The translations under genes and the position numbers were made by a program. Positions 9,037 to 64,000 of a DNA stretch of 64,000 nucleotides are shown here, piece by piece. Source of the stretch: Vermamoeba vermiformis (Eukaryota); NCBI GenBank assembly GCA_045837725.1, contig JBEWZL010000184.1, positions 186,001-250,000 on the forward strand, read 5' to 3'. Within the stretch, counting starts at the first letter, position 1. Each line of letters starts with the position of its first letter. The notes beneath the pieces were generated by a model. The model searched no databases and had not been told where the DNA came from. It was given only the letters and a program-made list of their open reading frames with translations.

Positions 9037-9532
9037 TTATTAAATAGGATATTATTTGTGAATATAGGAAAATATTGAATATTATTTTCGATTTTTCTCG
9101 ATCAACCGGAGTTCTGATATTTCAGCATTACTAATTAATCCAGGCACACTAGAGCAATGGCCTATTCAGAACAAATAATGATTTCTTTTTTGGCAGCTAA
9201 CTAAGCAATAATCGAAAGGTCTTCTTGCAAGCACTGGAATCTTCGGCGCACTCCAGAAACAATACTTCAATTTCAACTGCAACAGGCTGTTACTGTGTAT
9301 TTGTCATCAACGGGTAGTCTCGAGACAGAAGATTCTAATCTGCGGAGCCGGAGATCGTATTTAGTTATTCGGGAATTCTTGGACCCTCCAAATTTACGTG
9401 GCATCGCGACTAATTATTATTCTTTCAAGACTTCCGGCAAATATAAATAGCAGAAAAAAATGGCAGTTTAATTCAACAATCAAAACAGTGTACAGCACCA
9501 CAAGTCTACAGCTCTTCAACAAGAACTACAAG

Positions 9533-10960: not shown

Positions 10961-11224
10961 GCGATAGCAATACCAACACTTTAAACTGTTTTGTAACTAA
11001 GCATTCATATTGTACAAACAAACTAATCAAACATTGTAAATAGTTGAGATTCAGTAAAGCAACTTTATAAAACAAATGTGCGTCATTTTTGTGATACTAC
11101 AGCCTGCTTGTGCATTCAAAGGCACGATACCGAGAATAATCACGTGCTTAATTTCAAATTTGTTAAAATAAGTGCCAAGCTTCTGAGAGCTTCTGTCCAA
11201 CACGTAACAAACAGAACAACACAA

Positions 11225-21450: not shown

Positions 21451-24400
21451 ATGTCCTCGACACCACTGTTGAGTCAAAGGACCCGTCGTCACTCAGTTGA
21501 TGCATTTACTAGTCCTCGCAGCGAGCACTTAACTGCTTCTGAGGCAGATTTAGGTCGCGAACGAGATCTTTCTCCGTTACGCAGTCCTTCAGATACTATT
21601 TATCCACCTAGACCATCAAGCGTAGACAATACACCTACTACTAAGAAGCGACGATTAACCTGGAGCACAGTTAAAAGCCACTTAAACAGGTCAGGTCCAA
21701 TTACGCTTCCAGACTCATGGAAAAATTCATCCTCCGATTCCATTTCAAAACGCAGCTCGGTACGTACTTTACGAATAATATTATTATAGTAGTGCATAGA
21801 ATCTCGCCTTTAACTTCATTCTGTTCCAATTCCAAACTTGTAAACTTTGCTCGATCTCCATGCAACTTGACTAATTATCCTATTTAGAGCTTTAAGATAT
21901 CATCCCATACAGACGTAAGTGTATTATAGCTATCATTCATTTTGTACTTAATTTGACGGTCTTTGAACCCAGTCCGGTACCGAGTCATTTTCCGAAGAAG
22001 AAATGGAGTCAATTGATGCGCTATTGGCTCAGTTAGTGTCTGAGAATCAAGGTAAGAGATTAGAGATTAAGGAATTGCTATCAGATTCATTTGACAAGAA
22101 TTAAGTAATTTGTGACTCACATCTGATTTATTACCTCATTTAGAAAAAGGCTTTGTCGACAACTTCTTATGGACCAGCAGCTATTTCATCGAGTCAGTAG
22201 CACTATTAGAACGTCTTATCGATTTGTATCCTTTATCAACCTAAAATTGAATTACTTTCTAATTGCGTTCTAGTATTTTTAGACCTTAACTCAACGGCTT
22301 AGGTACCACAGACCTGCAGGCGACATTGATGTGGCTTCGGAAATGGTTACGAGGTTCAGGTAAGTCAATTTATCAAATACTCTCAATCGAATTTTATACG
22401 TCTATATTTAGCGCTCGCATCTAACTTACTCGTGCCTAGACTCATCAATACGATTAAGAAAATGATCGACATGCAGTGTCATACATCAAATGAGACTTCA
22501 ATAACATGGCACAACAGACTTTTGGCATTTATCGACGAATTGAACAAAGGAAGCGAATCTGATCAGAGTTGCGCTGCACATTTGAAGCAGAGACTCGATG
22601 AGATTAAAGGAAGCACGAAGCCAGTGGAGAATAATGAAGTTCAGAAATCTCCTTCTCTGATTGGGGAAGCGAATCCAGGCAAGGCGGATGCAGTTGCTTA
22701 TGTTTCTAGCGAGAAGTTCAATATTATGCAAGACAGTGCTATTGACATAGCAGAACAGCTTACTTTAAGAGACTACGAAATGTTTCAAGCTATTTCTATT
22801 GAAGTGTTTCAGAAGAAACGATTCGAAAAAGAAATGGAAGATCTGACTTCACCTTTGGGCTTGTTTATTGCTAAGTTTAACGAGGTACCTTTCAAATTCT
22901 ATACTCCAATTAATAGACCTAATCTCGATATCAGATTTCCCTTTGGATTGGAACGCAGATCGTTTCTGCTTCAAACAGCGACGGAAACAAAGAGCTCATT
23001 GCGCGCTTCATCGAGATTATGCGCGAGCTCAGAAAGTTAAACAATTTCAATGCGGTTATGGCTTTCTACTCCGCACTTAATCTCGGCTCAGTCTCTGGAT
23101 TCGTAACCAGATGCTTTGCTGCTCTGCCGGATGATCTGGCGCAATTCTTTAATCAGATTAAAAAGTTGATGGACCACTCAATGAACTTCAAATCATACAG
23201 AGAGACACTCGAGATGGCTGAGCCTCCATGTATTCCTTATTTGGGTAAGTCGAAATAACCCGATAAATAATTCCGCAAATCGGTCATTTTCAGTTGAAAT
23301 CGATATTAATTTGCTTATTTAGGATTAATTATGCGTGATCTGATGCATCTCGAAGAACTTCCGTCAACAGAAGATAACATGATTAACTGGCACAAATTGT
23401 CACGTGTTGGCAAGACCCTTGCCCAGCTCGCAAAATTTCACAAGTCCCCCTATCAATTCGCGGCTATTCCTCACATTCAAAAGTTCTTGCGGAATATTCC
23501 CAAGTACAGCGTGATATTGAGCGAGAATCAGCTGTACACATTGTCCCGCGCCATCATCAACGACGAGGCTGATGCTAGCGAGGCCCTGTCCAGGATAGAC
23601 GCGCCTAAATTGATCCCCACGACCTCGGACACTAATCTGCACGAGGCCCACAGCGACCACGACATGTTGCCCGACAGAAATGCGTTGTTCTCTGTGCCGC
23701 CCTGGGTCATCAAACGTGAGGTGCGCGATGAAGACGGCAACAGAACGACATTTGAAGAGGTGATTGGCGAGCACACTGTGATCTGCATCTTCATGCGACA
23801 ATTTGCTTCGTAAGCAGTTAGACATCCTGGTGTAAATGATAGGAAATTTACTTACAATTGTTTTTTTTGAATTAGCCCGCCAAAGTCTGCCTCAACGTTA
23901 AGTCAGATCAAGCCATTTTTGAACGAGTTAGGTGTTAAACTCATTGCCATTGGCAGTGGGAACGCTAATTCAGCGGCTGGATTTAAAATTCAAGCCGGTT
24001 TTGGTACGTGGAGTCACATCCAGCTTCGAATCCACAATTACTAACCATGAATCTCCAGAGGGCGAGCTCTTCTTCGATGAGGCACTCCATCTTATAGAGG
24101 ACTTTAAGGTCAAGCGCGGTTGGAACAAAGCTCAAGGCAGAAGAAATTTGAATCGCTCAAAAATCGCCTCTATTCTTGGATGCGACGAAAATGAGGGCTT
24201 AGGCGACGTAAAGTAAGTCGGACATAGCACTATAATATCTTCTTTATTGACACTATGCTTAATAGTCAACTTGGCGGTACATTCTTGTTACGCGGAGAAA
24301 AGATCTTGTTCGAACATTTGGAGCAGTTCGCGGGCGACAATGTGGACCCCATTCAGATCTTAAGGAAAGCAGGTGCTGGTCAAGAACTGCTTGATCGTAT

Positions 24401-28665: not shown

Positions 28666-31600
28666 ATGGAAACCAATACAATCACGGAGCACACCAATAA
28701 TTACGACAGTCAAACCGAAGGTACCAAATATAATTTTGGTTTAATCACTAATTTCTGATTTATTTGACCGTTTATTTGATCGGTTTTTAATAATATTATT
28801 GCAGATTTGACCGACGACAATCTGTTTCCCTATTTAAACTGGGAGACATTCTTCAAGACAGCCGGGTTCAATGATATTCTAGTGAAGCAGTACACTCAGC
28901 TCTTCAAAAAGCATGAAATTGAATACGACATGATCAACGATCTGACCCACGATGTTTTGTTGCAAATGGGGGTTAATAAGGCTGGTCATCGAATTAAAAT
29001 TTTGCGCATGAGATATAAGCACAATTTTGATATTGAAGGTAAGCCACAATGATCAAAATGATCTATTAATTAAATTGCAATTTACGCGATTGCGAGTACA
29101 AACGGTCTTATTTTAGCGATCATATAGCAACATCATGCATCAATTTTTATTCATTTTTAATTATATTGCTGATTGAATTAGATATGCACGCAATTTTGAC
29201 AAATCTGACATGTACTGACTAAGCTGTATTTAGAACCGCTAGATAATGGCGCACAAGACGAATTTGTACAGCGCATGTACGAGTTGTCACATTCTCATCG
29301 CCCACAAGCGCCGTTACAAGCAGGTACGAATTTTGATAAATTTTTATTAGATGTACAGCGATAATTTTTATTGTTGAGGCAATCTTTACTAATATAATAT
29401 GAATCGAGTAGATAGCCCGCGTAAATACGAGTTACCTAATGGCAGACCGGCCTCTGGTTCATGTAAGTTCTGCAGACTTTCGTACTTTGATTTTGTAACG
29501 GATGCGCTCATTGTTACCGCGAATTTGCTCGTGCAAGTGATACCGTAATATTGATTATCTATCTCAGACTTGCCACAATCCCTGCCAGACCTCGCTACAG
29601 CTGCTAAGACAAAGGCCGATTCTCCGTCTTCAACTCCGGTTCAAGGTACGCGCTGGATCTATTTAATTAGCATTGAGAAATACATGCTTGGCGTTAATAG
29701 GCTATTTTTAATATCATGACGCCATGTTGAGCGATGAATAACGAAGTTTAATTTTGAAAAACTGCGGATCTGATCCCGCCCACTCAAATTTATGTAACAA
29801 TATGAATGTAATGTTATTTATATCTTACATTAGGTTCGCCGGCAGTCAAAAAAGTGAATGCTAAACTCGCTCCTACCACTCAAACTAAGCAAGCTTTGAG
29901 ATCTAGCGAAGATACAGGACGCAGATCCACCATTGCTTTGCCTGTTAATCCTCTTACTGGTACGTTTTGACATTGCCATACTAGTCTATATTCATATTTT
30001 CGAGCAAGCGAATCGAATCCTAAATTTCTAAGATTTCAGTACGAAATTTAAAAATTGATATCCTAGCATTACAAATCCGAATATAATTGAATATTAATAT
30101 ATATTGTTGGAAGCAGGTAGCGCCAGTTCACCATCAGTTCCTCATGCGGGCATTAAATACTACCTCAACGACGAAGTAATCAAGCACAAGTTGCCAGCGG
30201 AGACCAATTCAGTGCAATCGTTCTCGCAAGCAGTGAATCAGAAGCATGGACTGCACGAATTCGCTGTATTCGCCGTGGACAGCGAGAACAAGTTGAAGGT
30301 AGTCAAAGCAGATCAGGCCTTGAACGAGGAGGATGTGTATTACGTGATTGAGAACAACCGTCTCGATGCTATTTCAAAGCGCATCGAAAAGAAGGTTAAA
30401 AAGGGTACGTAGTTATATTAGCATTATACTTTAAGGTTGCGCTCGTTGGTGGATCGAAACTAAAAATCAGATCTTTAGAGCAAAATTAGCTAGACCCTTA
30501 ATTAACGTAATATTATTATACAGATGTTGAAATGACCTTAGCTAGCAAAGGAGGCCGCCTAGTATATAATTCAGACAATAATCCACTCAAAGTTGATTTC
30601 ATTCCTGACTCGGATCTGTACATGAATCAAATGGGCCGTATTGGCATGTGCATGGCTCCTGGAAGGTACGTTAATACTGAAGGGTAGTGAGTGCCTATGT
30701 TAACAATAACGGTTTATAGAAAGAAGAAAAAGAAGGCTCACGATTGGGACCGAGATCTGGCCAAGGACTTGGATCGCATCCGCACCACTTACGGCGCAGA
30801 TGTGTTTGTCTCGTTGATCCGACACTCAGAGCTGCACGAACTTCAAATTCAGAACTTATTTGACGAGGTTGAAGCTCGTAAAATGGAGTCGATTCACTTC
30901 CCGATCAAAGACAAGTGGATCCCGAACTCGATGGAAGGGCTCATCTACTTGGTCGATGCGATCATTCAGCGCCTTAAAGAGGGCAAAGCAGTCGTTGTGC
31001 ATTGCAACGGTGGCAAGGGTCGAACAGGAACAGGTGCGTGCTGACTACTCGTGCTCATTATAGTCTCATTACTGATTATGGCAATGCAGTGGTGGTCGCT
31101 ACATTGGTCGGTCTCGGCAAGAAAGTGCACCACGCCATTGATGTCGTGCGCAAGTCACGTCCTGGCACTATTCGCAATCCGATGCAGATCATGTACGTCA
31201 AGCGATTCAAATCAGCTTGGCGCGCCTACAAGAAGAAACAAGCGCGCATCAACATGGGCCTGCCTGTGGTACGTGACACCGCTAATATATTGCACGAGCA
31301 GCGACTGATTCATTCCTATTAGGACGGCTATATTGATGATGAATTGTCATCGTCTTCATCGAGCTCAATTGACTTGACTGATGTTGACGCTGAATTTAAA
31401 GTATATCAAGTAAGATAGCGGGACATTAGTACGGTTTTCTAACGTATTGTCATATATTCTCAGAACACATTAGACGCTGCTAATAACAACGGCGTAAGTC
31501 CTACCGTTAAAGTTGACGATGCTGGATCCAGCGACGACGAAGAGAAGTTGAGGAAAATTCAGTTGAAAGCAGCCAATGCCCATATGGGCAATCAACGCAT

Positions 31601-32111: not shown

Positions 32112-32488
32112 GTGGCTGGTGGCACGTGAAAGATTTGCCTAATTTAGTAAGTGAATCAAAACTTGAATTTTTACTTTGACTTGTATTATAATAAATTAAA
32201 TGGATTGGCATCGTAATCCATTAATAATGAACAATAATCAACTTCATCGCAATCCAGCGAGAGTTAATAACGGTTTGCGTGATCTGCAGATGCGGATCAT
32301 TTTTATTAAATATCCAGAGCGCTTATAAATATGCCACGCACAGTTTTTGTTTACGTAAGAGAACGTCTAATGCGAAGCAGCCTAAAGACATTTGACGGTC
32401 AATTTGCAGGCGGGTTTGGCAAAAAAAGTTGTTCGTCGTTCTAGTTTCTTAATACCGCCTCACTGGCAGCACCACAGGCGACATAGAC

Positions 32489-33025
32489 ATGCTTCACCTT
32501 GACTCTGCCAAGCAAAGTTCAACAACGCAAATGGATGTCAAGAAACCGACGCTAAATTATCTTCCAGACTATGTTGAACGAGAACTTTTCAAATTTGCAC
32601 TCACCGATACAATGACCATATTTGAATCACACCGTATTACTCCAAAATATCGCTCTCTTGGCGAATTGGTCGAATGGTACAGGAAAATACCCAAAGAAAA
32701 ATACAAATCCGACGAAGAACTTTTCAATTGGGCAGTGCAACATTCAATTCAATCACCCTCGCTTGAAATATTACAGACATGCCTAAATGTAGAGATTTTT
32801 GAAGCACCTTCACATGAGCAATACCGACGAGAAGTGATCGAGATGGGAAAACGACCTTGCACAATGCAAGAGCTTGGAAACCACCTCCTTCAACACCTTG
32901 CGGCACGCAGAAAAGCATACCAAGAGCCTGAATTTCCAGGACTGAGTCGTCAAGACATACTCGAGTGCCGCACATTTCTGGCTTGCTTAATAAGGCACCC
33001 TCTGCCAAATGTAAATAGTCCTTAA
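32489..33025 (+). pseudogene. Orphan tandem family copy 1 (truncated, possible pseudogene)
   Basis: Homologous to copies 2/3 but IRYMREVGEI is replaced by one codon, and a 23-nt insertion introduces a stop after NSP. Confidence 0.55.
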
Positions 33026-33281
33026 TAGGTTATTTTTTTGTTTTTTATGCGAGGGATCTGGAATTTCAACAAAGGGCCTGAAGAAGGGTTCAGCGCCTAA
33101 TTTGCAAAAGGCTAGCTATAGATAGAACATGTACATTATTAGTGTAATAGATACATTACTAGTAAACCTACCACAAAGCTGAATCAGTTCCGTACGTGAC
33201 ATCCACCGTGCAAAGTACTTCGTTCATTTTGTTGTTCCAAGTTGTGGTTTCGACTAACAAAGTACTAACAATAGCAATACA

Positions 33282-34022
33282 ATGAAATTTGATGGTCGTT
33301 TGCGGAATTTACAAAAAAAGTTGTTCATTGTTCAATTATTTTATACGCCTCACTTGCAGCACCGCAACAAAGACGTGTTTCAAATTGATTCAAATATTAC
33401 TAAGCAAAGTTCGATAACGGATATGGATTCAGAGAAAGCTAAGACGAGATATTATCAAAATCTTCCCTTTGTGGAACGAGAACTTTTCAGATTTGCACTC
33501 ACCGATAAAATGACCATATTTGAATCACACCTTATTAATCCGCAGCATCGGTCTCTTGACGAAATGGTTGAATGGTACAGGAAAATACCCAAAGAAAAAT
33601 ACAAATCCGCCGAAGAACTGTTCAACTGGGCACTGCAACGTTCAATTCAATCACCTTCACTTGATAAATTACAGACATGTCTCAATGTGGAGATCTTGGA
33701 GGCCCCTTCATTTGAGCAATACCGACGAGAAGTGATCGAGATGGGAAAACGACCTTGCACAAGACAGGAGCTTGCAGAGCACCTCTTTCGACACATCGAA
33801 GCGTGTAACAAAGCAAACCAAGAGCTTGAATTTCCAGGACTTACTCTTCAAGACATAGACGAGTGTCGCATTTTTCTGATTCGCTACATGCGCGAAGTGG
33901 GCGAGATCTGCTTAATAAGGCACCCTCTGCCAAATGTAAATAGTCCTTATGCGAGGGACTACATTGTAGAAGGTCGTGTGAACACTACATCTGCCGTGGA
34001 GTCTATCGCGACACCCAAATAA
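33282..34022 (+). CDS. Orphan tandem family copy 2, intronless (start may be ATG 33423)
   Basis: Shared core ERELF.FALTD...VEWYRKIPKEKYKS.EELF.WA...QYRR..IEMGKRPCT.QEL...EFPGL..QDI.ECR..CLIRHP. Confidence 0.65.
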   Translation: MKFDGRLRNLQKKLFIVQLFYTPHLQHRNKDVFQIDSNITKQSSITDMDSEKAKTRYYQNLPFVERELFRFALTDKMTIFESHLINPQHRSLDEMVEWYRKIPKEKYKSAEELFNWALQRSIQSPSLDKLQTCLNVEILEAPSFEQYRREVIEMGKRPCTRQELAEHLFRHIEACNKANQELEFPGLTLQDIDECRIFLIRYMREVGEICLIRHPLPNVNSPYARDYIVEGRVNTTSAVESIATPK

Positions 34023-34263
34023 CTTGAGGAAGTCCAAGTCAAGTCTGCGGAGACAATACGATAGAACTTGTACATTATTGATATAAATAATTATAAATAT
34101 AAATAGTTAACATACGACGCAAATTGTTCCGACTAACAAAATACTAACAATAGCAACGCAATAAATTTTGACGGTCAAATTTGCAGGTGGGCTACGCAAA
34201 AAAGTTGTTCATCGTTCATGTTTCTTAATACCGCCTCACTTGCAGCACCACAAGCAACAAAGA

Positions 34264-34884
34264 ATGTTTCAAATTGATTCTGATCTTGCCAAGCAAAGGC
34301 CATTCGCGGAAGCTCAGACAATAAATTATCAAGTTCCAGAGTACGAGGAACGAGAACTTTACAGATTTGCACTCACCGACACAACGACGCTACTTCAATC
34401 ATTCTGTATTTCTCCGAAATATGGCTCTCTTCACAAAGTGGTCGAATGGTACAGGAAAATACCAAAAGAAAAATACAAATCCGCCGAAGAACTTTTCGAC
34501 TGGGCAATGCAACGTTCAATTCAATCACCCTCGCTTGATATGCTACAGAAATTTATCAACGTGGAGATCTTTGAAGCACCTTCGCATGAGCAATACCGAC
34601 GAAAATTGATCGAGATGGGAAAACGACCTTGCACAATGCAGGAGCTTGGAAACCACCTCTTTCGACACCTTGAAGCATGCAACAAAGCATACCAAGAGCC
34701 TGAATTTCCAGGACTGAGTCTTCAAGACATTCTCGAGTGTCGCAAATTTCTGATTCGCTACATGCGCGAAGTGGGCGAGATCTGCTTAATAAGGCATCCG
34801 ATGTTCCTAAATAGTCTTTATGCGAAAGACTACATTGTGGATGACCATGCGAACGTTACATCTGCAGCGCACAACTCCAGCTAA
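34264..34884 (+). CDS. Orphan tandem family copy 3, intronless
   Basis: Same conserved core as copies 1/2; first in-frame ATG at 34264. Confidence 0.65.
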   Translation: MFQIDSDLAKQRPFAEAQTINYQVPEYEERELYRFALTDTTTLLQSFCISPKYGSLHKVVEWYRKIPKEKYKSAEELFDWAMQRSIQSPSLDMLQKFINVEIFEAPSHEQYRRKLIEMGKRPCTMQELGNHLFRHLEACNKAYQEPEFPGLSLQDILECRKFLIRYMREVGEICLIRHPMFLNSLYAKDYIVDDHANVTSAAHNSS

Positions 34885-38900: not shown

Positions 38901-41900
38901 CGCGCACTTTGCTGAAGTCACGCAATTGGTCTTGATAGTACTTGATGTGGATCAACAGCTCGTTAGCTAAGGTCTCATTCTCGGCTGCTGTCTTCATAGC
39001 ACTAGCTGCGCCAATAGTGCCCTTGCTCATCTTTGCCTCAACCTTTTGCATGTGATGCTCGACAAATTCGAGGGCGGCGTTAGGCGAGTAGTTGTAGAGC
39101 TTGGAGCCCAACTTGTCTTGGATGTAACCCTTGTGCGTCAGTAGTTCCAAGCAGTAATAATAACACGCTAACTTGGTGCTAAATTCACTGGCATGTGCGT
39201 TGTCTCCATTGTGCGCTATCAGCGAGTCGAACAAAGACTTAGCAGTCTCGGCCTGAAGTATGTTAGACATTGTACAAGAATTGACAAGGCTTACTCGTTC
39301 GAGGCTCATTAAATAAGCAAAGAAAAGCTGAATATCGCTGTGAAGGGCTTTTTCAGCAAGGTCCAATGTTGCCTTTGCACGAGACTTCTGTGCACTGAAA
39401 GTAATTGTGCTGAGCTTGAACAATGTCTGCTTCAATGCGAACACTAGGGACTCATTGGTCGGTGCCTTGAACCGCGAGTACAAACTACGAGATTAGTTAG
39501 TAAGAGCCGTACAATATAGTCTCAATGACGTACTCGTCGCCAGCAACATAGCCAGCATTGTTCACCGAATAGAACGGATGGAAGCGCAGTCTATCGGGCA
39601 CACTGTAGTCATGTGCAAAATTGCGCATCAAGTCAGAGCTGTCGAGCTCGAGTAACTTCTTCAAGCACAAATGCAAGAACTGCGTGCTGTTGGCCAGAAT
39701 CAAGTTCATCTCGCGACTGGGCTTGATCCTCTGCCCAGACTCTTGCTTGTCATTCTCGTCTTCGTATAACTCATCGTCGCCAATCAAGTCTTCATCGTCA
39801 CTCACGACTTCATTCTCTTGCTCTTCTAGTGTATGTGACGATTGAATCTCGTGCAGGAGATTTTTGGCCTCGTTGTCAGTGATGGTAAGACCTAACTGTT
39901 GGCACTGTTGTCTGTTCTCAAGTGCTCGCCAGTACGAGATCAATGACTCAATTTCACGCTTGGAGCAGTGGCACAACGCGAAGGACAGCAATTGCATACG
40001 AGTGTCCAGGTCTTTGAACTCTTCAGTCAAGGCCAATTTCTTGCACACGGTCCAGATCGGCTTATACTGCACATCGATCAGCTCCTTGCACATCTTGCTC
40101 GCGTAGTTCCAATCATTCCTCTTGAACGCTGCTCGTGCTTCAAGCAATGCAACCATTTGAAGGTCTTCTTTGGTTCGGAGGCCAAGTAGCTCAGCTGCTT
40201 CGTTGAAATCTTGACGCTTCAAGTATGATCTACAGCCAGTTAGATCTCAAGGCCTACGTGTTCACGATACTTACTCTGGGCGGTCACTTAAAGCCTTCTT
40301 AATCAGATTCATTCTGTTCTTTTCTAATCTGATTTTCACAGGTAACATCTTCAGTCCTAACGAGGACAACTTTCTCACCGCTTGAATGAGGTTCAGCTCT
40401 TTACGCACTTCGATGCTCGGGCTCGGCATCAATCTCAAGCTGTTGAAAATGTTAGTCGGCCGAAATTATCTTCAAGACAGTGCGTACCAGTCCTCGGCTG
40501 AGTTCATCTCCGATTGATACGGGTCCGTGCAAGAGTTGAAGTACTCGGCAGCGACTTCGAGAACAATGTGCTCGGTGTTTTCTGCCAGAGCCAAGTACTC
40601 ACGAGCCAACTTGAATTCTGCGGCATGCCGTTAGAAAAAAGCACTCTAAATGTAAGATACTTACTGCCAGCACGCAACAAGCTCTGAAGATAGATCGCAT
40701 AAAGCTGGTCTCGCTTGATAAAAGTAAATACATTATCAACTAGCCACAAGAGGTCTTTGAGAATGTCACGCCACTGATTGTCATTCAAAGCAGGATGTGA
40801 CTTGACGCCCTTATTAGCGATCTTTGTCAAAAGCTTTACAATCATGTCAGACTGAGTTTTGGTGACTTCCAAAAAGAATTTAGCAGGCTTTTCTTGGTTA
40901 CTGTAATAGAACATTAGGACAAGAATAACGAGTGTTAGCGAGACATACTATTTGGTCAATCTTTCCATGGCCGAGAGATGTTTCTCGAACAAGTCAACAC
41001 GGTCCTGAAGATCTTGGACCTCGAGCTCAGCATCACTGGATGGAGCAGGCAAGCACTGCGAAACTATTAGCTTCAGTTCGCTATAGGAATCCTTTCTTAC
41101 CTCAAAGATAGTGTTCATTTGCAGCTCTGCGCTAGGTCCTGTTTGAGGGCACGCGTACATGCACTCCAATGCAAGGCGTAATAACTGGTTGTGGTTCTCG
41201 ATGATTCTGCCGCCAGGTGGCTCAGGACCAACAGGACGACTTTGTTGGAAGACCTTTGTGCACAGTGACAGCTTGCCTTTTTCAGATACTTCGACCATCC
41301 AATTGCCCAAAAGAACTACATCGAGTTAGCAAAATAAAGTAATGCATTGCGTGATCGTACCAATTCCTGGAGTGGTTGTCTTAAGGATCTTGACGTACGG
41401 CAATACGCGGTGTTGAATGTCATCGATGATAGTCTCTTCCGTGCTGTCAGCCAAGAACAACGAGATGCGCGCATAAGGTGACAGCTTATCGAGTTCCTTC
41501 AGCTTGACATCACGTGCACATTCATACACGAGCATAGTGAGCTGTTCGAGGTCATCGCGCAGAGTCTCCAGCCCTTGCACTCCGTTCTGGATGGCTAATT
41601 GCACGAGCGCAAGTGCGTTCTCAACCAAGCCAGTCTTATCTTCAATAAGAAGTGCTTTGGCCGAGTACCACAGGGTCAAACTTTCACTCGATTCAGGGTA
41701 CTGCGCGACAACGCCCTTGGGAAGCGGAACGAGTAATTTCATCTCTTGCACAGCTTCAAATGGTACGGCATAGATATCTTGACTTGGGAAGCGGAGCACT
41801 CCTTCAATGATCCATCGCTTGATTTCAGCACGCACAATCTCGTCGTTGTATTCTGACTCGTAGCTGACTTGTTTCAGTGAAACGCTAGCTTTGTTCTTGA

Positions 41901-44900
41901 AGTGACTGTCGAACGCCTTCAACACATCTTCGACTTTGATTACACTGCCCTCAAAGTTAATCTGTTTGAGGATATTCGCCTGCTCGCTCCAGTCTTCTTC
42001 GCGCCATTTTCTCGTTTCCCATTCGCCTTCAATGCTACTTTGTGCGCCAGGCAGAAGGTCGCTGTAGCGATGAGGATCAACTGTTTCGGGAATATGGTGC
42101 AAGATGTCAAGGCGATGTGGCAGTGTCTGTGAGCTGTGGTACGTGAACAAGATGTCAATGGCGTGGAACTTTTCTTCGAAACCGAAGTTGATGGCGGCAT
42201 TGACCAAGTTGCACGTTCTGAAGTGCAAGTAGTGCTTGGGATTATAGTACTCAGGTTCCGTGATGATAGCAGAATAAGTCTCGAGCCTGTCCAAGTAACG
42301 CAAGAAAACCAATCGATAGTAGACCAAATCCAATTCTTCAGGGCTTAACCTAAGAATGAAATTAGCCCGTTTCCAATCTTAGACTCATGACTCATTACTT
42401 ACTTGATATTTTCATCGTGCACAGGCTGCTTCTTTTCAGTTTCATCATCACTGTCTGACTCTTCGACAATCTTTGACTTCGGCGTTGTAATCTTCAAGCC
42501 ATACAACAGCAAGGCCTTGGCTCCCGCCAGTGTCGCTGGAACTCGTTCTTTGCACTCACGCAACACCCAATTCAAGTCTTTGATCTTGCTCAAGAAATCT
42601 TGAATGGAGTGCTTGGTGACTGGACTCGTGGCCCAACGCTTTTGGTACACGGGATCAGGATTCAAATTGTAGATTCTAGCCAATGTCAATGCATCGCCGT
42701 ACTCTTCAGCGTCTATCTTCGAGATGAACAGGCGCTCAGGTGTTGTGTTGCTAAGTGACAACAATCTGAAAGTGAATTGATCTTTGACACGCTTGTCAAG
42801 GGGCCATGATTCGTTGTCATCGCTCGAGGGCAGAATAGCGGCCATAGTACTCTTAATGATTGATCCTAGCGTAGACCCAGGCTTCGTTTGATTTTTAGCC
42901 AACGTTCCTTGTTTCTTGTCGTCTGGTTTTTCAGGCTTCTTCGTGTCTTGTTTATTTTCTTCCTCCGTTTCCTCATCACTGTCATTTTGTTGCTCGGCAT
43001 TCTCATCGAAATCTGCCGCTACTTGAACTGTTTCTTTCACGCATTCTGAGATGAAAAATCTGCAACTGGGATTAGTATTGATGAAAATTTTGGATGTCAT
43101 TTAGTCACTTTTACCTTCCATCAATAGCTCGAGTGACATGAGTGTCAGGTGCAAATACTTCAGGCTGTGAGCCCAACAGATTCGTCAATTCATTGCTGTC
43201 ATCAACAGGACCGACGACAATAGTCCAGCCTCCTTGACCGACGATTGTCAACTTGTTGAGATCCCACCAAGCAATATCACGAACAACTAAACAGTGTTAG
43301 CATTGATGTAGCGTGTTGTATATGAATCTTACTTGATTGATCGTTGCTGCCTTTAGTGACATTTGTTTTTGCCGTTGTTTGATTGGTGGCACTGTACAAG
43401 GCTTGAGAAGTCCATCGTTTGATTCTCAATAGTTTGTTAACGTCCCAAATGACAACTAGACCGTCAAGATCCAATGTCGCAAGGAAATTTCCGTCGGGCG
43501 AGAAACAAACTTTGTGCACGATGACTTGACCTTTTTGAGTGCTGAGCTGGTATGCCCTTCGTGCGGAAGATATCCAGCCTATAATATGTTTATAAGGACA
43601 CCTTTCTAATATAAATCATGTTATCCATACCTTTGTTAACGGGCTTGATGTTCTCATCTTGAGGTGGAAACACGCGCTCATAAAACGGTTCTTCGTCAAG
43701 AACTTTCCACAACGAGACTTGACTGGCTGTCGCTGAATCTAGTGTGATTAAAGTGAGTATTAAGAGCTAGTAATATATAATAATATGCACGTACTATTAT
43801 TCAATTCTCCGCCACCGCCAATCGCAATCAATTTCTTCTCGTGATGATAATCCATGCACGTCGAGACGAAATGTAAATTCTCCAAGTTGAGAATAGTGTC
43901 TGCTTTTTTATATGGTGGTAATACCAACTTTTGTGCTAGTGCTACCGGCTCGGATCTACCAACAAAAATTAGCTTGTGTAACGGATCCATATTGCAGTTA
44001 CTTACTTGAGGGTCTTTGAGATAAATATGCGCAATAACATTCCTTGATAGTCCAGCAAGAACAATTCCTCGCTAAATTTAGTTATTAGAATGATTGAAAA
44101 GAGAATTTAATTCTGTTCTCGTACCACTGCGGATCTATTGCTGAAGGACGGCTAATTAAAGCAGCGATAGATGATATTGAAGGTACACCATGAAGTACTA
44201 CACGACGTGGTGCTTCTGGAGGGAAAACTAAAAATAGTTCCGATCCACTAGCCAAAGCCAGCCACTGACCGCCAAATGCCAACGAGAATTTCTGCCACTG
44301 ATCCGTGGCATTAGGCACTATAGTAATACTTATTAGTATACTACCAAAATAACATCTGAATTTTTTATATTAATGTATTTGCAAACAAGTTAAATCTTAA
44401 TTTTGACCTGATCTCACCTTTAAACTGAAATTGGTTCATGTGGAAATCATCGTTATCAAATCTAAGCTGTATTGTATCCAATTGTGATATCGCCAATGCA
44501 CTTCCATCATCGCTAATCAAGATCTGGTGAGGTTGTTTTTCTTTCAAGAAATTTTGGTAGGCCAAGGGCAGAGCCGTCGTACTGCCCGAGCTGAATTTTT
44601 TAAATAATCCAATGGCATTAATTATACCGCCAATATAGTCTAAATACAAAATTGACGTCAGATCTGGCTGCTCGTGAAAACCCAACGTGTAGTCAATTTA
44701 ACTTACTCTTTCCAGTATCAATAATTTTATTTGGTATTTTAATCCATTTTTTCTTCGCGACTTGGTGGTTCTGAAAGCGAATATTAATTTTGAAAAATTA
44801 AAATTATTTTCAGATGCAAATAATTACCTTTAAAATAACCTCTTGGTCAATTACAGACAAGTCATATAAAATTGAGTTTCTTTTAGCATTTTCCTCGTGG

Positions 44901-55425: not shown

Positions 55426-55828
55426 CGTTCTTTAATTGGTCCGAGAACAAATAAGAAATTTAGAGCCCGCGGACAAAGCTGTTTTCGTTTGTTACCGTTG
55501 CTAGCAACGTCAATACGAATACCAACCAGATGACGCTCTTTGCCATGGGCATTACTTAGCAGACACGTCTATTTCAATTGGGTTTCATCGCATTGGTTAA
55601 AGGGTGCTTGATGCTGCACATCCTCTTAAAAATTGAAAGTATCCGAGCACTAAGTACATGATCACAAATAACAAGATGATCAACGATAAATTAGAATGCT
55701 TTAATGGGTTGCGTTCTATTGTAATTACTTAACATTTTTGAAATCCAGCGGAAGGTCACCTCCAAAACGAACTTGACAGCGACTTTTTGTCAGTCCCCTT
55801 TATTTCAAACTTCTTGACACCACGAATC

Positions 55829-58763
55829 ATGAAGATGAATCATGGAGTGCGCATCAGTATTACCCTTCTAGTACTGGTGTGCTCGATCAGCTCAGTGCTT
55901 AGTGTCTCGTGGTGGAATATTTCTGACGCAGCTCTACGAAACCTTCCCGTAAATGAATTTGCATCCTTAACAGCGGAAGAGCTTGGATCCATCCCTCCTC
56001 GAGTAAGTTGAGTTCATACTTGGAATTAATTAAATTAATTATGCAGTTGTAATTAATTGCGCTATTGTAGTCATTCTCGTGGATTTTGATAGCACAAATA
56101 AGCGCTATACCACCAGAAGCGTTCAGTGGTGCTAACTCCTCTCACCTTTCTGGATTGACAGATTCGTGTCGTGGTTTGACATCGAGTCAAGTAGGCAATA
56201 TACGAGGACCAGCATTCAATGGAATAACATCACGCTGCTTCAATGAGTTCACTGAAACCACTTACGCGGGCTTGACAAGCGAACATGTCATCAACTTCAG
56301 CGACTCCGTTTGCCGGGGTAAGTGACTACGAAAAAACATTTTACAACGTCTAATGTGCGTTATTAGGGATGGCTCAGATCACGAGAATACCGAACTTTGC
56401 CTTCATTAGCATGACTCCTCAGTGCGTGGCAGTGTTGGGAGGCACTAGTTGTCGAGCATTGAGCAGTAACATGCTAGCCTCAATCTCTCGAACAGCCTTA
56501 CAAGCATTGACCTCGAGTTGCTTGAACAATTTTGCGGAGAATATATTCGCGCAAAGCACGGCTGACCTCATCTCATCGCTGCCAAGTAGTGCGTGCAGTG
56601 GAATGAGAGCACGACATCTTGCGAACATGTTTGCCCCTGCTGCTTATGGCTTCACAACTGAATGTGTGGCTCAATTCACTTGGCAAACGTGTGAAGGTCT
56701 GATCTCAACTGTGGTCCAGAACTTGTCTCCTCGTGGAGTGGCTGGTCTGACGACAACTTGTGTTCGAGATGTGCCGCAAACAGGTTTCTCGACAATGCCC
56801 GGAGAACTCTTCGCACACTTCAATCCAGTGGCTTGTCAAGGTTTTCAACGAGAGCACATGCGGAACATGCCACCAGTGGCCGCGCCATACTTTTCACCTC
56901 AATGCGTCGGCAACTTCTCTGGCGGTGCTGGCAGTGCGTGCAGAGGGTTGACTGCGGATTTCGTTACTCTGTTGACGCCACAAGCGATCAGTGCCATCGG
57001 ATCCAACTGCATGTGGAGCATTGCTGGAGAAATTTTCGCTTCTTTAACACCTCAACAATATGCAGCATTAAGTCCGCAAGGATGCAGTGGTCTCGCCAAT
57101 TATCAAGCCTCGTTCTTTCCTTTAAGTGCCGCGACAGCACTTACCAAAGAGTGCATCAGTGCCTTTGGATTTAGCTCCGCTGGTGTTTGTGCTGGACTTC
57201 GTGCCGATTTCTTGCGAGCAATGCCGGCAGAAAATATGCGTTATTTGTCACCCGGCTGCATGCGTAACTTGCCTGGAGTGTCACTGCAACAACTTACGAG
57301 CGAGCACTTGCGAAATTTCAACCCGGAAGGCTGCCGTGATTTCCGACTTCCACATTTGCAGAACTTGCCGCCAACAGCTGCATCAGGCCTCACAGCTGCG
57401 TGTCTTCAATTATTTTCAACGGGCTTTTGGGGTGCTTGCAGTGGTCTTTCACAGTTCTTCGTTGGCAACATGTCAGCGGATGCGTTTTCAGGGTTCAATT
57501 CAACTTGTATTTCGAACACTGGACGAAGAGCTTTTGCGTCAATCAACAGTGCTCAAGTCCGACAGATAACTCCCCAAGCATTCGCTGGGTTTGATGTGCT
57601 GCACATGTTGGATATGAACGAGGAAGTGCAGTTTGCGATGAGTGTCGCGCAGATCCAACATCTGACTCCGCGAGGATTTAGCGGTTTTAGACCTGGTCCT
57701 CTTGGCGCATTAATCGAAAGCAACGGCCTCCCTCTCGTCAATCTTTTGCCCGCAGCTCAGACCGCCTTGTACCCTCCTGAATTCGTTACTCGTAAGTGGT
57801 AGTCGCACGGTGAAAGAGTCCTAATAATTTTTCTCAGAATTCAAGTCGTACGTGCCGAGCAAAGTGCCTTTGATGACTTCGTGGGGTGATGTTTCTACTA
57901 ATTTGGCTGGTGCAAGTTGGCTTCAGATAACTTTGTTGCAATCACCAGCACCACTTAATGCCGAGCATATCGTACAATTGGCTCCTTCAACTGCTGCAGG
58001 ACTGCGTGCTGATCAAATAAGGGATATTCATTACACTCACTTTGGTCAATTTACGCCCCAACAAGCACAAAACTTCACCGCTGATATGACGGCAGCGTTG
58101 TCTAGCGTGCAGTTGCAGTCAATACAGCCGAACACATTTGGCAATATAAGTCTTGCGGGCATTAGTGGCCTCCCAGCTTCGCTTATTCCATATGTGACCG
58201 TCGATCAAATCGTGCAGTTGACACGTGCTCAGATGTTCCAAATGAGCTGCTCTCAATTGAACGCCTTCACTGACGCACAAATACAAGTCTTTACACCTGC
58301 TCAGGCTGCCAACTACCGACCAGTAAGTCGTAATATTGCTCGTTTACGTGGTCTAACGCTTGGTTGCAGTTTTTGCGCAGTTGTGCCATGCGTGCCCCGA
58401 CGACTTTTACCAACCCCACAATTGCACATCCTACAGCAGCTCCACATGGAATTAATGCCATCATCGAGTCCCCGACAACGATTATGCCGTTACGTAAGTA
58501 GTGGTGATAAACCTAACCACGCCAATTTTGAACTAACGTCCTTTGAAGTTGTGGGTCTGCTTGTGCCTGGCATCACCGTGTTGACGATAGTGATTATAGT
58601 AATAATCATCGTGGTAAAGCGGCGACAAATGCAACGACGACAGAATGGAGGCATTGAGAATATGATTGGCCAGCCTTACTACGTTGAGGGATCTGGCTGG
58701 ATGCGGATTGTGGATGCTGATGATCAAAATGTTATGATGGTTCCATATAACGCAATGAATTAA
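55829..58763 (+). CDS. Type I membrane protein with Cys-containing ~24-aa solenoid repeats; multi-exon
   Basis: Signal peptide; repeats such as LSP.gc.GL....C; TM VVGLLVPGITVLTIVIIVIIIVV followed by KRR; short cytoplasmic tail. Confidence 0.75.
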
Positions 58764-59061
58764 ACATTTTGTACTTATCAATGGTTCTTTATCGTGCCTG
58801 AATGGTTTTTGCAGCCTGAGGGTGAAACCCTAATTTTAGACATAATTCTCAGGCGTGAAGGCCTTATTAGCCACAATTGCAAGATTCAACTTGCTCCATT
58901 GCATTCAAGCAAGTGAGGATCGTTCACGTGATTCTTTCCTTATCCGACATCGTTCATGAAACAATCGGAACAACAATCAATCTTTTTGAAAATCCACGCA
59001 AAGTTAGTGTTATTTAACATTCAACAAGAAGAAGAAGCTGCTCGTTTGTTACTCCTTAACA

Positions 59062-62000
59062 ATGAGTGGCAACAAGATGTGGATCCTGGCTATCTTTATA
59101 GCGCTGGTGAGCATAGTGCTCTATCAGTACACGCTCCCGATTACACACGCACGTAGCGCTGCAAAAAATAAAGAAAAAGCCCCAGAGCGAAATATTATAG
59201 TTGTTGGAGGTGGCTTAGCTGGCATGAGTGCAGCGATCGAGGTAAAAATTTTTTCCGTGCCAATTTTTCCTTGTAAAAATATTTATTTAAATATATAGGC
59301 CGAGTTGCACGGTGCTAAGGTGACGATTATCGACAAAGAGCCAAAGTAAGTCCAATTTTAATTTCATGAATTTTTTGGATCTGCATGCTCAGTTTTAAAT
59401 TAGCTTCGGAGGCAATTCCGCGAAAGCTTCGTCAGGTAATTACCAAATAGAGCTATAATCAAGTTTAGATTTAACGATGACACCTTTCAGGAATTAATGG
59501 TGTCCTCACCAAAGCCCAAAGATTAGCTAGCATTGATGATAACGTGGAAGAGTTCATTAAGGACACTCTTAAATCAGGACAAGGTGACTACTTCATAAAA
59601 ATCTACAAGCAAATAGCTGACTATTTTTAGGCCTTTCGGATGTGAAGTTGGTTGAAGTTTTAGCGCAAGACTCAACCACTGCCATTGACTGGGTCACCTT
59701 GTTTGGCGTGGATCTCGACGTTTTGTCAAAATGCGGCGGACATTCAGTAAGTTTAGGACAGTATTTCCTTTTTAGTCGATCTGACCGGATTTAGTTCCCC
59801 CGTACGCACCGCTCGAGCGTTGATGAGCGAGGTCGTCCTCGTAACATTGGCTGGGAGATCGTATCAAAGCTCATTGACTACATTAACTCTTTGCCTGATG
59901 ATAGAATCAAAACTATTTACGGCGCTAAAATGACCAAATTGATTACCAATGGCAATGGAGACGTTGTCGGAGTTAAATACCTCGATTTGACGTCGAAGAA
60001 TGAAATTAGCTTGTACGCCGATGCTGTCGTATTGGCTACCGGAGGGTAATTCACAAAAAATTACGCTTGGAATAATCGTATTAATTTTCATTTATTAGTT
60101 ACTCGCGAGATCCCGAGTTGTTGAACAAATACGCCCCGACTATTGCCAAGTTGCCTTCAACCAACGGTAACTTCGCTACTGGTGACGGAGTTAAAGTCGC
60201 TCAAGAAATTGGAGCTAACTTATCGCTGATGGACAAAGTTCAAATTCACCCGACTGGTTTTGTTGATCCCAAGGATCCTAACAACCCGACCAAATGGTTA
60301 GGCCCCGAGGCCTTGCGTGCCAGTGGTGGTATCTTGCTCAACACCAAGGGAGAACGATTCGTGAACGAGTTGGGATTGCGCGATCACGTGACACACGAGA
60401 TCTTCAAGCACTGTCACCCGATGAAACTTGCTGACGGTACTGACGGCCCTGTAGCTTCTTACATCGTGCTCAACGACGAGGCTGTCAACTTGTTCCAAGC
60501 CCCTGTGCTCGAATTCTATCGATGTAAGTTCATCGTATTTGGCTCTATAAGCACGTGTCTAACGCTTTTTCGTAGCCAAGGGATTCGTTCAAGATTTCCC
60601 TAATGCCCAAGCCATGGCAGCTGCTTTGAATATGGACTTCGAGATTGTCAAGTCAACCATCGAGAACTATCGCAAATACAAAGAGGCCAAGAAAGATCCC
60701 TTCGGCAAAGACACCTTCCCCGTTGTGTTCTCAGTCGATGAGCCTCTTCACGTCGCTCTGATTACACCCTCTATTCACTACACTATGGGCGGTCTCACAA
60801 TTGACTCACAAGGACAAGTCCTCAAAAAGGGTACAAAGGAAGGCGAGCACGTTCCTATCAAGGGTTTGTTCGCTGCTGGTGAAGTCACTGGTGGATTGCA
60901 CGGTGAGAACAGATTGGCTGGTAACTCACTCTTGGAATGTGTTGTGTTTGGCCGTCGTGCTGCCAAGTCTGCTGTTGGTACTTACGAACACCCTTATCAC
61001 GAACAATACATCCCTGCTTTCCAGAAGATTAAAGCTATCGTTGGCGAACAAAGGTAAGAGCTACAAATAATCCATCCATGATCTAACTTGTATAGATTCT
61101 CTGAAAAGCCCTACCTTCGTGTTCTCCACGGTCGTGACGCTTCTTACCATCAAAGCAAGATGCCCGATGCTGTCGTGTTCCCTAACACCACCGAAGAAGT
61201 AAGCGAGATTGTCAAAGTCTGCCACGAGTACGGCATTCCCATCGTTCCTTACGGCGTCGGTTCTGCCTTGGAAGGTCACGTGCACGCCATCAAGGGTGGT
61301 CTTACCATTGATATGAGCACGATGAACAACGTCGTCAAGTTCCACGCTGGCGATATGTCCGTGACAGTTCAAGCTGGCATTCGTCGTAAAGCTTTGAACA
61401 CTTGGTTAGAAGACAAGAAAGTGTTTTTCCCTATCGACCCTGGTGCCGATGCTTCGGTAAGTGGTTTAAAGAATCACGTGACGTTTGACTAACCGTGCCG
61501 CAGATCGGTGGTATGACTGCTACGGGTGCTTCTGGCACATTGGCTGTAGGCTACGGCACAATGCGCGAGAACGTCATTCGCCTCAAAGTCGTGTTGCCTG
61601 ATGGCCGAATCATGAATACTGCTTCTCGTGCTCGCAAGTCATCTGCTGGCTACGATTTGACTCACTTGTTTATCGGCTCTGAAGGCACTTTGGGTGTCAT
61701 CACCGAGATCACTCTGAAGGTCTATCGCATTCCTCCTGGCATTGCTGCTGCTGTTTGCTCATTCGAGCAGTAAGTTTAGCTTTCTTAAAGCTAGATTAGG
61801 CATAGTCTAACCTGTCTCCGTAGTGTCGGTGATGCTGCCAACACTGTCATTCAAGCCTCGCAAGAAGGCATCAAGGCTCACAGAATTGAGTTGCTCAACT
61901 CTGAAGCTATTCGTGCCGTCAACATGAAGTTCAATTTGACGTACACCGTTGGTCCTAAACTCTTCTTGGAGTTCCACGGCAATGACGATGGGGTTGTCGC

Positions 62001-62520
62001 AGATATTTCACAGAAATTCATCAAGATCGCCACTGACAACCACGCCATTAACTGTCAAATGACCGTTGACAGCAAGGAACGTGACACGTTGTGGCAAGCC
62101 AGACACGGCGCTTACTGGGCCTCTGCTTCTTTGTGCCGTGGCTGCAAGTTGTACGTGACTGACGTGTGCGTGCCCATCAGCAGACTGTCCGAGTGCGTTG
62201 TTGAGACTGACGATGACTTCAAGACCTCTCATTTGAAGGGTCCGTTATTGGGCCACGTTGGTGACGGCAACTTCCACTTGATGATCCCAATCGACCCCAA
62301 GAATCCGAGGGACTTGCCTGAGGCTCAACGACTCAACGAACGACTTGTCAAACGTGCTATTAGTATGGAAGGTACTTCGACTGGTGAGCACGGTGTTGGT
62401 TTGGGCAAGATTCCATGGGTCTTGTTGGAGCGCGGTGAAATTGCCGTGGAATTGATGCGCAACATCAAGAAGTCGTTTGATCCGAAAGGAATTATGAACC
62501 CTGGCAAGATTTTTGAATAG
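59062..62520 (+). CDS. Fusion: N-terminal anchor + soluble FAD fumarate reductase (Osm1/flavocytochrome c type) + FAD-linked D-lactate dehydrogenase (LDHD/DLD1 type); multi-exon
   Basis: [147 protein letters not shown]. Confidence 0.88.
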
Positions 62521-62700
62521 GCACGTAGTTTAATTTTGATAAATGTAAATTTTTCCTTTGCGTATTCGGTTGCAGATATTTGCAGTGAGTCATTTTTTGC
62601 AAAACAAACAAACAGCGGACTTATTAGACCCGCACACGGTCAGATAATACACAACACGTAAGTTATAGCAAAGCGACAGAATTCTCAGTTTGTGCACGAT

Positions 62701-64000
62701 ATGACACAGCAACTCGACCTAGATCAGAGTTCTTTTTTTAACATTTACGAACTGGTCGGAACGATTATTGGTATTTTAGCAGAGCAAAAAGAAGGCAAAG
62801 CTATTTTTAATATCGGAATGGTATCTAAAAAGTAAGTGTTATTTTCGAGGTCGCCAATGGCTGGTTTAAAGCGATAATTTGCAGGCATAATGAGTACGTT
62901 CACTCTTTAAAAATGTGGAAGTGCTTCCACAATCAAGCGTTGGCATACGACAAGAATGACCGGATCAGTACTCCTTTCGTCAGATCAATAATTAATCACA
63001 CCAACGATCTTCGATTTGCATTAGATATTTACTCTAACAATACCATAAAGCAATATAATGCACTTCAAAAACTGAACCAGCTAATTCGGGATTCAGAAAG
63101 CATACGAGATTTAGTCTCCCGATCAGAGCTGCTTCCTTACTTAGTGCGGCTGCTGGAATCTGCAAATGACAATAGAATATTACAAGTACGTAGAGCTGTG
63201 CTTGCAGTAATACTTGCGTTACTCACATTCCTGCAGCGCGAAGTGATCATCATTTTTACGAACATAGCTGCCGGCACAATGGAGCACCAGCAGAGTGTAA
63301 TTGATGCCGGAGCTTTTAAACCACTGCTACAACTGTTTAAAGTAGATAACATTGATATACAAGGAGAGTGTGCTTTGGCACTGAGCAACACAATACACCG
63401 CAATGTGAAGGTTGAAAGGTTTGTTTCCATCATACTGTTTCACTAACGATTCCTTAGTTGAGCAACGAGCTGTTCGAATCAGGAGTACTTGACGTGATTC
63501 ATCATATTCTAGAATTCAGTAAGAACAACTTTGCTGCCCTAAACTGCATGTTTCTTTGTGAAAATCTTGGCAAAGTTAGCCCCCGCATGTTGAACCTGCT
63601 GCTGCCTACCATTCCTTTCGTAGTGAATACACTCGTAGCACCTCATTACGAGAAAAGGACTAGAGACCAAGCTTGTTCGTTTCTTCGTGAGCTAATTCTC
63701 ATAAACTTAACACTACCTTTTGAGCGCCTTCAACAAACGAAGAATGCTTTACAGACCATCGTTAACTTGATGACGTAAGTAAATAGCAGCCAGTGGTAGT
63801 GCAGATGAATTTGTTACCCAAAGTGATTATCTTATTTAGCACTCAACTCTCGGCATTGGTTGTTCTAAAGGAGATAGTTTTCAAGGGCTCCACTATGCAC
63901 ATTCAAGAAATTTTGAGCGCAGGATTCATGAATCAGGCAAAAAACATACTTAGGAGTCAATTCATCAACGTTGGCTATGTGCGATCGGTACTTTGGATCC
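62701..64000 (+). CDS. Importin-alpha-like armadillo repeat protein (partial, runs off window end)
   Basis: LLPYLVRLL...LQ.EV...FTNIAAGT.EHQQSVIDAGA...LLQL...IDIQGECALALSN. Confidence 0.7.

Follow-up and report, generated by a model that had tools for sequence, protein, structure and literature searches.

The gene at positions 59062 to 62520 on the forward strand of a 64,000-nucleotide stretch of Vermamoeba vermiformis DNA (contig JBEWZL010000184.1; the whole stretch is called the window here) encodes a fumarate reductase (FRD) of the soluble Osm1/Frd1 type joined to a D-lactate dehydrogenase (DLD) of the LDHD/DLD1 type. The FRD-DLD fusion is real: one spliced open reading frame (ORF) gives one polypeptide of 981 residues, which has both folds and both sets of catalytic residues, and this architecture is conserved across distant protists. 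We suggest that the protein may act as a tethered D-lactate:fumarate oxidoreductase, in which electrons would pass between the halves by an exchangeable flavin or by transient docking, and, judging from the sequence, we give this proposal about an even chance. An initial annotation of this DNA had put forward both the fusion and such an activity.

The window is eukaryotic in character, with about 42% G+C and short GT-AG introns. Removal of ten GT-AG introns (42-58 nt) between the ATG at 59062 and the stop at 62520 leaves 11 exons and a 981-residue reading frame with no internal stops, and the protein is 94% identical to 978-residue database proteins such as P0245. Exon 8 (60576-61053) encodes the C-terminus of the FRD and then a dehydrogenase helix of 11 residues. 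In a comparison made via P0245, this terminal helix lines up with the beginning of the stretch of mouse LDHD that is matched, which places the domain boundary inside exon 8, before the 42-nt junction intron at 61054-61095 (+). The junction intron, a GT-AG intron with a CTAAC branch site, thus lies inside the dehydrogenase N-terminus, and its splicing links exon 8 in frame to RFSEKPYL. The other nine introns, at 59242-59298, 59346-59403, 59436-59490, 59584-59630, 59747-59794, 60046-60098, 60524-60575, 61457-61503, and 61770-61823 (+), were predicted, and each was also seen as a GT-AG joint. When Pfam was run on single exons, exons 7 and 8 matched FAD_binding_2, exons 9 and 10 matched FAD_binding_4, and exon 11 matched FAD-oxidase_C. 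Rfam gave no matches in the window.

Four of 23 listed sequencing runs were compared with the gene. The junction intron is removed in contigs of three of them (X1, X5, and X9, from three studies), with 255, 201, and 255 letters, respectively, on the shorter side, and a 1136-nt contig of X9 is continuous across the junction from 60576 to 61769. The evidence is piecewise, as no single piece covers the whole gene, and the RNA nature of these three runs is only guessed, with none of the listed runs recorded as RNA; however, the loss of all introns from their contigs shows an mRNA origin. The X1 pieces start at 59026 and end at 62531, and an X5 piece ends at 62536, giving an approximate transcript extent of 59026-62536 (+), outside of which no bins have depth, although contigs are unable to prove the true ends. 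The fourth run, X21 (raw reads from a relative about 90% identical), has no listed joint at the junction intron, and the loose-end consensus of 15 of its reads, translated by hand, is GESRFSEKPS, the junction of P0245. The nucleotide differences from the runs fall at third codon positions in 36 of 40 cases and are synonymous in 34 of 40, against a random expectation of 23%; these 40 scored differences are a subset of 348, all between 59094 and 61267. The 11-exon model and the LDHD alignment thus bear out the earlier claim that the FRD is followed in the same exon by the first DLD helix, and the contigs from three studies confirm that the 42-nt intron joins the halves in frame.

Could two adjacent genes, or pieces brought together by mis-assembly, have been linked by a chance GT-AG pair? 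Splicing of the junction in three studies refutes this. Furthermore, the genomic ORFs of relatives, on contigs of 474-530 kb, are uninterrupted by an intron at the junction, and the full-length fusion protein of Vermistella is transcript derived, so that we regard an artefact as vanishingly improbable. A different concern is that the gene makes separate FRD and dehydrogenase products, by cleavage of the linker, retention of the junction intron, or an internal start. The junction intron contains two in-frame stops, so it must be spliced for the fusion to be made, and if it were retained, translation would end just after residue 541. An in-frame ATG is found at 61160 (M563), and the linker looks flexible in the structural model. 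However, no intron-retained form is listed among the runs compared, though rare variants can be lost from contigs; the junction intron is missing from close and distant relatives alike; and a start at M563 would cost about 35 residues of the LDHD fold. Separate products are therefore very improbable.

The FRD half, of the Osm1/Frd1 type, comprises residues 43-515 (59188-60976, +, exons 1-8). It contains Pfam FAD_binding_2 and matches TIGR01813, for which P0245 scores 404.9 bits and passes the cut-off of 285.45. Yeast Osm1 (5GLG) is the best structural match, with E 2.6e-88 and a TM-score of 0.91. All six catalytic residues are present, H290, E310, R313, R334, H449, and R494, equivalent to H281, E301, R304, R326, H435, and R477 of Osm1, and they are also found in the fusions of Vermistella and Aduncisulcus described below and in 30 of 30 standalone FRDs. 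Mutation of any of the six lowers the activity of Osm1 (PMC6242907). Osm1 has a second flavin pocket, through which it oxidizes free reduced flavins and accepts electrons from the flavoenzyme Ero1, with or without direct binding (PMC6242907). By comparison of the sequences, this free-flavin pocket appears to be largely kept. Five of its nine residues are identical (K83, S85, L307, F379, and Y380), two are hydrophobic swaps (W306 for F297 and I174 for P162), and the remaining two are T304 for W295 and V376 for N359.

Residues 7-24 (59080-59133, +) form a hydrophobic segment, a putative signal peptide or signal anchor, with a Kyte-Doolittle value over 19 residues of 2.08, the maximum for the protein. 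The N-terminus of Osm1 directs dual targeting to the endoplasmic reticulum (ER) and mitochondria (PMC5638582), and the initial annotation took the segment as a pointer to the ER or the intermembrane space. The segment itself is confirmed by computation, and P0245 and Vermistella have it as well; however, its value as a pointer falls, because it also occurs in 33 of 64 standalone FRDs tested and is absent in the Aduncisulcus fusion, and so is not special to the fusion. The window protein has no KDEL-type or peroxisomal C-terminal signal. It also has no CxxCH motif, and thus no tetrahaem domain of the flavocytochrome c3 (Fcc3) type. A Pfam scan of P0245 found neither an ApbE nor a b5-reductase domain, both of which were detected in controls. 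A flavinylation-motif pattern has one match, inside the dehydrogenase domain, but the same pattern caught only one of four ApbE-bearing controls.

Among standalone relatives of this half, the FRDs P0253, P0264, and P0273 (from Willaertia, Naegleria, and another cluster) carry an N-terminal extension of 390-480 residues in which Pfam has no match at E 1e-6. A bacterial contig from a metagenome-assembled genome (L023) carries at 450-2012 (+) an intronless standalone FRD, which has a hydrophobic N-terminus and is 47% identical to the window FRD; the 3' end of this gene is present a second time, at 2200-2520. The neighbors of this gene are what we take to be gas-vesicle genes.

The dehydrogenase half, about residues 525-981 (61004-62517, +, from the end of exon 8 to exon 11), is an FAD- and metal-dependent D-2-hydroxyacid dehydrogenase with Pfam FAD_binding_4 and FAD-oxidase_C. 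Its best match is mouse LDHD, with E 2.6e-134, 452 bits, a TM-score of 0.94, and about 46% identity. The domain begins inside exon 8, right after the FRD, and so is not standalone and has no mitochondrial presequence of its own. All five subsite A residues of LDHD are present, R843, H894, H901, E938, and H939 (mouse R347, H398, H405, E442, and H443), and they are kept in Vermistella too; mutation of these five abolishes the activity of mouse LDHD (PMC10589216). Thus, the identity assigned earlier to each half stands, with all three expected Pfam domains found and Osm1 and LDHD as the best structural matches, and the catalytic motifs named at that time are all present in the sequence. Two other identities for this half were considered and rejected. 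D2HGDH scores 154 bits, compared with 452 for LDHD, and the pocket positions are hydrophobic, not polar and positively charged as in D2HGDH. The GlcD model TIGR00387 scores 317.7, below its equivalog cut-off of 567.9.

What is the substrate of the dehydrogenase half? In subsite B, none of four positions is identical to mouse LDHD, and all are hydrophobic (V101 to L599, W351 to Y847, S365 to V861, and I407 to M903). Furthermore, A363 of mouse LDHD is the bulkier L859 here, a position where GlcD has Tyr. Since the pocket is hydrophobic but changed at every position, comparison with the mouse enzyme makes D-lactate the likely, but not certain, donor. Glycolate, a branched D-2-hydroxyacid, or D-2-hydroxyglutarate/D-malate could take its place, which would be compatible with coupling to fumarate. 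The altered subsite B and L859 leave room for such a donor, and mouse LDHD itself prefers several branched hydroxyacids over D-lactate (PMC10589216). However, the wide gap between the LDHD and D2HGDH scores, the fully hydrophobic pocket, and a GlcD score so far under its cut-off (318 vs 568) make another donor improbable. D-lactate from prey cell walls has been discussed for phagotrophic euglenozoans (PMC7052976), and methylglyoxal is a further source (PMC10589216); by analogy, either could supply D-lactate to the host. The initial annotation also had LDHD/DLD1 enzymes normally giving their electrons to cytochrome c or electron-transfer flavoprotein (ETF). This is less settled than claimed, since PMC10589216 states that what oxidizes mammalian LDHD physiologically is unknown.

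The fusion has support beyond the evidence given for it initially, as the architecture is kept in the close relatives, in the lineage of P0008, in Vermistella, and in Aduncisulcus. When 382 fetched proteins were screened for both halves, 12 matched both. Nine of these belong to a single cluster of 32 members with about 94% identity to the window protein, and five of them are complete, at 978 residues; the complete ones carry the database name 'D-lactate dehydrogenase (cytochrome)'. The ORFs of two members, P0242 and P0243 (the 474-530 kb contigs), cross the junction intronless and end reading into the window's intron 9, which shows that the fusion lies inside a single exon in a 94% identical relative. 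The absence of the 61054-61095 intron from so close a relative also suggests a recent intron gain or loss. P0008, a 316-residue fragment with 55% identity from a 528-kb contig, likewise has an intronless junction and ends at the same place as P0242 and P0243. The protein of Vermistella antarctica (Amoebozoa, Discosea; P0118, EP01104 P014710) is complete, with 1017 residues, 52% identity overall, and both active sites intact. The two halves are equally conserved, at 95% and 95% to P0245 and 54% and 55% to Vermistella. The anaerobe Aduncisulcus paluster (Metamonada, Fornicata) has P0256 (GKT22817.1, named 'Fumarate reductase 1'), in which all three Pfam domains of the fusion are found. Its C-terminal half scores 103 bits for LDHD and 89 bits for D2HGDH, a small margin for LDHD, and keeps the three histidines; the equivalent of R347 is lost, and Asp takes the place of E442.

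The fusion architecture is rare among the sequences searched. It was found in 3 of the best 150 of 46,895 matches in a search of all 50% representatives and in 2 of the best 120 of 4,317 matches in a search with the junction region, and more fusions may be hidden in the 50% cluster of Vermistella or beneath these ranks. A metagenome scan with P0008 gave 22 loci with 27-42% identity to the dehydrogenase part, none with an FRD, and did not recover the P0008 contig itself. A scan of prokaryote genomes with P0245 gave four loci, none with both halves; this was an exact search with six patterns, so its absences carry little weight. The ESM Atlas has FRD clusters only, at 0.77, and none with both families, although small clusters are invisible there. 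Single sequences were also seen in which the DLD appears to be fused to other enzymes: an apparent short-chain dehydrogenase in P0346 and an apparent NAD-dependent 2-hydroxyacid dehydrogenase in P0372, both judged by eye, and an aminotransferase in P0310. Each of these could be a gene-model chimera.

In a tree of the dehydrogenase half (55 rows, with Aduncisulcus and near-copies left out), the window protein, P0245, P0008, and Vermistella form one clade, with a bootstrap of 93, not fully settled, and an SH-aLRT of 83. Its sister group (100/98) consists of standalone enzymes of Pharyngomonas and Naegleria and one further protein, not of the dictyostelid ones. The FRD trees scatter the fusion rows with no resolved grouping, and a single fusion clade is not rejected by the approximately unbiased test, with p-AU of 0.39 for four rows and 0.23 for five. 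Thus, a single origin for the window, P0008, and Vermistella fusions is supported, from the dehydrogenase half only. The Aduncisulcus dehydrogenase has a very long branch; when the five fusions were constrained together in the dehydrogenase tree, the likelihood was 16 units above the quick free search, with p-AU of 0.78. The Aduncisulcus fusion may share that origin or represent a second one.

An AlphaFold model of P0245, made with a 70-sequence alignment, has a pLDDT of 88.6 and a pTM of 0.61. It shows two well-folded domains whose relative orientation is not fixed. A structure model, proposed at the outset as a check of the FAD-FAD distance, thus gives the domains with confidence and their mutual placement undefined. 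The linker between them, about residues 515-524 (60974-61003, +), has pLDDT below 50 at P0245 residues 515-519, and only 1 of 13 linker residues is identical to Vermistella. The spacing between the domains is short and similar in the fusions, with 55, 55, and 65 residues separating fixed motifs. For the Aduncisulcus protein, a fold predicted from its single sequence has a pLDDT of 32 and is not usable.

The proposed mechanism is as follows. The LDHD-type domain would oxidize D-lactate, or a different small hydrophobic D-2-hydroxyacid, by hydride transfer to its own FAD, with release of pyruvate. The electrons would then reach the FAD of the Osm1-type domain at the N-terminus. Most probably, they would be carried by a flavin that exchanges at the second pocket, or be handed over while the domains, joined by a short and flexible linker, dock transiently, and would not cross a rigid interface. 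Finally, the FRD domain would reduce fumarate to succinate. The net reaction would be D-lactate + fumarate to pyruvate + succinate, with no requirement for O2, quinone, NAD, or cytochrome c. This reaction is downhill by about 0.22 V from the standard potentials. A tethered donor and an exchangeable flavin would be the simplest route, because Osm1 oxidizes free reduced flavins and accepts electrons from Ero1. This reading is favored by the single mRNA and ORF, the equal conservation of the two halves, the predominance of synonymous differences, and the presence of both catalytic sets, together with two further points. The FRD family commonly has a donor module on the same chain, as 11 of 30 long FRD homologues scanned have a b5-reductase module at the same C-terminal position, 4 of these also with ApbE. 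In addition, the architecture recurs in an anaerobic metamonad, Aduncisulcus.

Several points weigh against this tethered oxidoreductase. The protein has no built-in relay cofactor, as neither haem motifs nor ApbE or b5-reductase domains were found in the scans described above, AlphaFold yields no defined orientation of the domains, and the linker sequence is not conserved. The second-flavin pocket is kept to an equal degree in standalone FRDs, so that its presence makes coupling possible without being a sign of it. The changes in the Aduncisulcus dehydrogenase show that a fusion can persist without a canonical D-lactate site. Furthermore, ATP11 is encoded in the window (5541-5954, +), which makes it probable that the host has respiring mitochondria and thus other electron acceptors at its disposal.

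The main rival reading, less probable than the tethered oxidoreductase, is that the halves are joined only for targeting. The dehydrogenase would have lost its presequence and would ride on the N-terminal signal of the FRD. Its electrons would go to cytochrome c, ETF, or O2, and the FRD would separately serve free flavins, Ero1, or Erv1, as Osm1 serves Erv1 and Ero1 (PMC5638582, PMC6242907). The unconserved, low-confidence linker and the undefined orientation fit this, as do the N-terminal segment, which appears to be an ancestral FRD feature, and the fact that most relatives are separate proteins. However, the fusion has been kept over about 45% divergence with short and similar spacing, and the union of a donor with an acceptor parallels the b5-reductase fusions of the FRD family. 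The Aduncisulcus fusion has no N-terminal signal, so shared targeting cannot be the reason for the fusion there. At the other extreme, the domains could dock, in cis or across a dimer, to bring the FADs within about 14 angstroms, with no free flavin needed. The linker is short, and Osm1 binds Ero1 directly at the place where a haem domain would sit, but the FADs in the docking model of that complex are more than 20 angstroms apart (PMC6242907). Together with the variable linker and the lack of a confident orientation, this makes direct wiring quite improbable.

In its widest form, the tethered oxidoreductase may be an old protist enzyme, a quinone- and NAD-independent single-chain D-lactate:fumarate oxidoreductase shared by amoebozoans and an anaerobic metamonad through vertical descent or gene transfer. 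It would pass electrons between two unrelated FAD folds and would clear D-lactate from prey or methylglyoxal, with succinate made in anoxia. Catalysis by both halves, the substrate, the coupling, the flavin relay, use at low oxygen, and the compartment are all presumed in this wider picture, for which the chances seem to us slightly short of even.

The fusion gene lies between two other genes on the same strand. Upstream, at 55742-58763 (+), is a gene for a long, cysteine-rich protein of imperfect repeats, which has a signal-like N-terminus and, at the other end, a membrane helix; its two long ORFs have no Pfam match. Downstream, at 62700-64000 (+), the window ends within an importin-alpha-like gene with armadillo repeats (Pfam Arm). 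Elsewhere, the window encodes an NBR1-like PB1-ZZ-UBA protein (9365-10957, +), an aldehyde dehydrogenase (11048-13061, +), a RasGEF (22923-23255, +), a CDKN3-like phosphatase (30691-31041, +), and Sec39/NBAS (41329-42378, -); like ATP11, these are common eukaryotic genes that show no evident connection with the fusion. An ORF at 3371-4390 (+) has a phage tail Collar domain (PF07484, E 3e-22) in this eukaryotic contig and was possibly laterally acquired. Three consecutive similar-looking ORFs of 190-254 residues at 32453-34881 (+), with no Pfam match, may form a tandem family of genes.

Both halves belong to well-studied families, but their combination and the activity that it implies appear to be undescribed. 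No description of an FRD-DLD fusion was found in the literature searched for the fusion or its hosts, a search with most subscription journals and supplementary protein tables outside its scope, and the passages searched in PMC13632651, bioRxiv 10.1101/2021.05.20.444135, and PMC7052976 describe no such fusion. Haems, FMN-binding domains, and b5 reductase with ApbE are electron-input modules of the soluble FRDs, to which the protein adds a further kind, the only one seen here that would oxidize a carbon substrate in place of NADH or a carrier. If the halves are coupled, this would be an enzyme activity for which we found no description, and a simple two-flavin system for the study of electron transfer between unrelated folds. 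For the natural oxidant of LDHD, a soluble FRD, acting directly or via a free flavin, would be a testable answer in some eukaryotes. The fusion also points to a hidden anaerobic capacity in protists with ordinary mitochondria, which would have been overlooked because the databases name fusion proteins after one half.

How does the window protein compare with known systems? Among the closest are the uncharacterized entries Aduncisulcus GKT22817.1 and Vermistella P014710, which have the same domain order, FAD_binding_2, FAD_binding_4, and FAD-oxidase_C; in that of Aduncisulcus, the N-terminal segment is absent, the linker is longer, and the dehydrogenase site has diverged (27% identity). With yeast Osm1/Frd1 (PDB 5GLG, 5ZYN, and 6KU6), it shares the fold, the six catalytic residues, the lack of a haem domain, the hydrophobic N-terminus, and, by sequence, apparently most of the second-flavin pocket. 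However, Osm1 is a single-domain protein fed by free flavins, Ero1, or Erv1, whereas the window protein adds a complete dehydrogenase in the same chain. From LDHD/DLD1 (mouse LDHD, PDB 8JDC and 8JDE), it has the fold, all of the metal ligands and catalytic residues, and the hydrophobic side-chain pocket, but it differs in the missing presequence, the changed pocket residues, and the fusion to a candidate electron acceptor. The kinetoplastid NADH:fumarate reductases (ApbE-FRD-b5 reductase) and the FRD-b5 reductase fusions have the same FRD core and a C-terminal donor flavoenzyme. Their donor is an NADH-oxidizing b5 reductase, whereas that of the window protein is a hydroxyacid dehydrogenase of the VAO/PCMH family, and the covalent FMN that the kinetoplastid enzyme needs (bioRxiv 10.1101/2020.12.30.424822) has no evident site here. 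Shewanella Fcc3 (PDB 1QJD) has the same catalytic residues and the same flavin and clamp domains. Unlike the window protein, Fcc3 receives its electrons through an N-terminal tetrahaem wire. Shewanella also couples lactate to fumarate, and it does so through a multi-protein membrane chain, not in one polypeptide.

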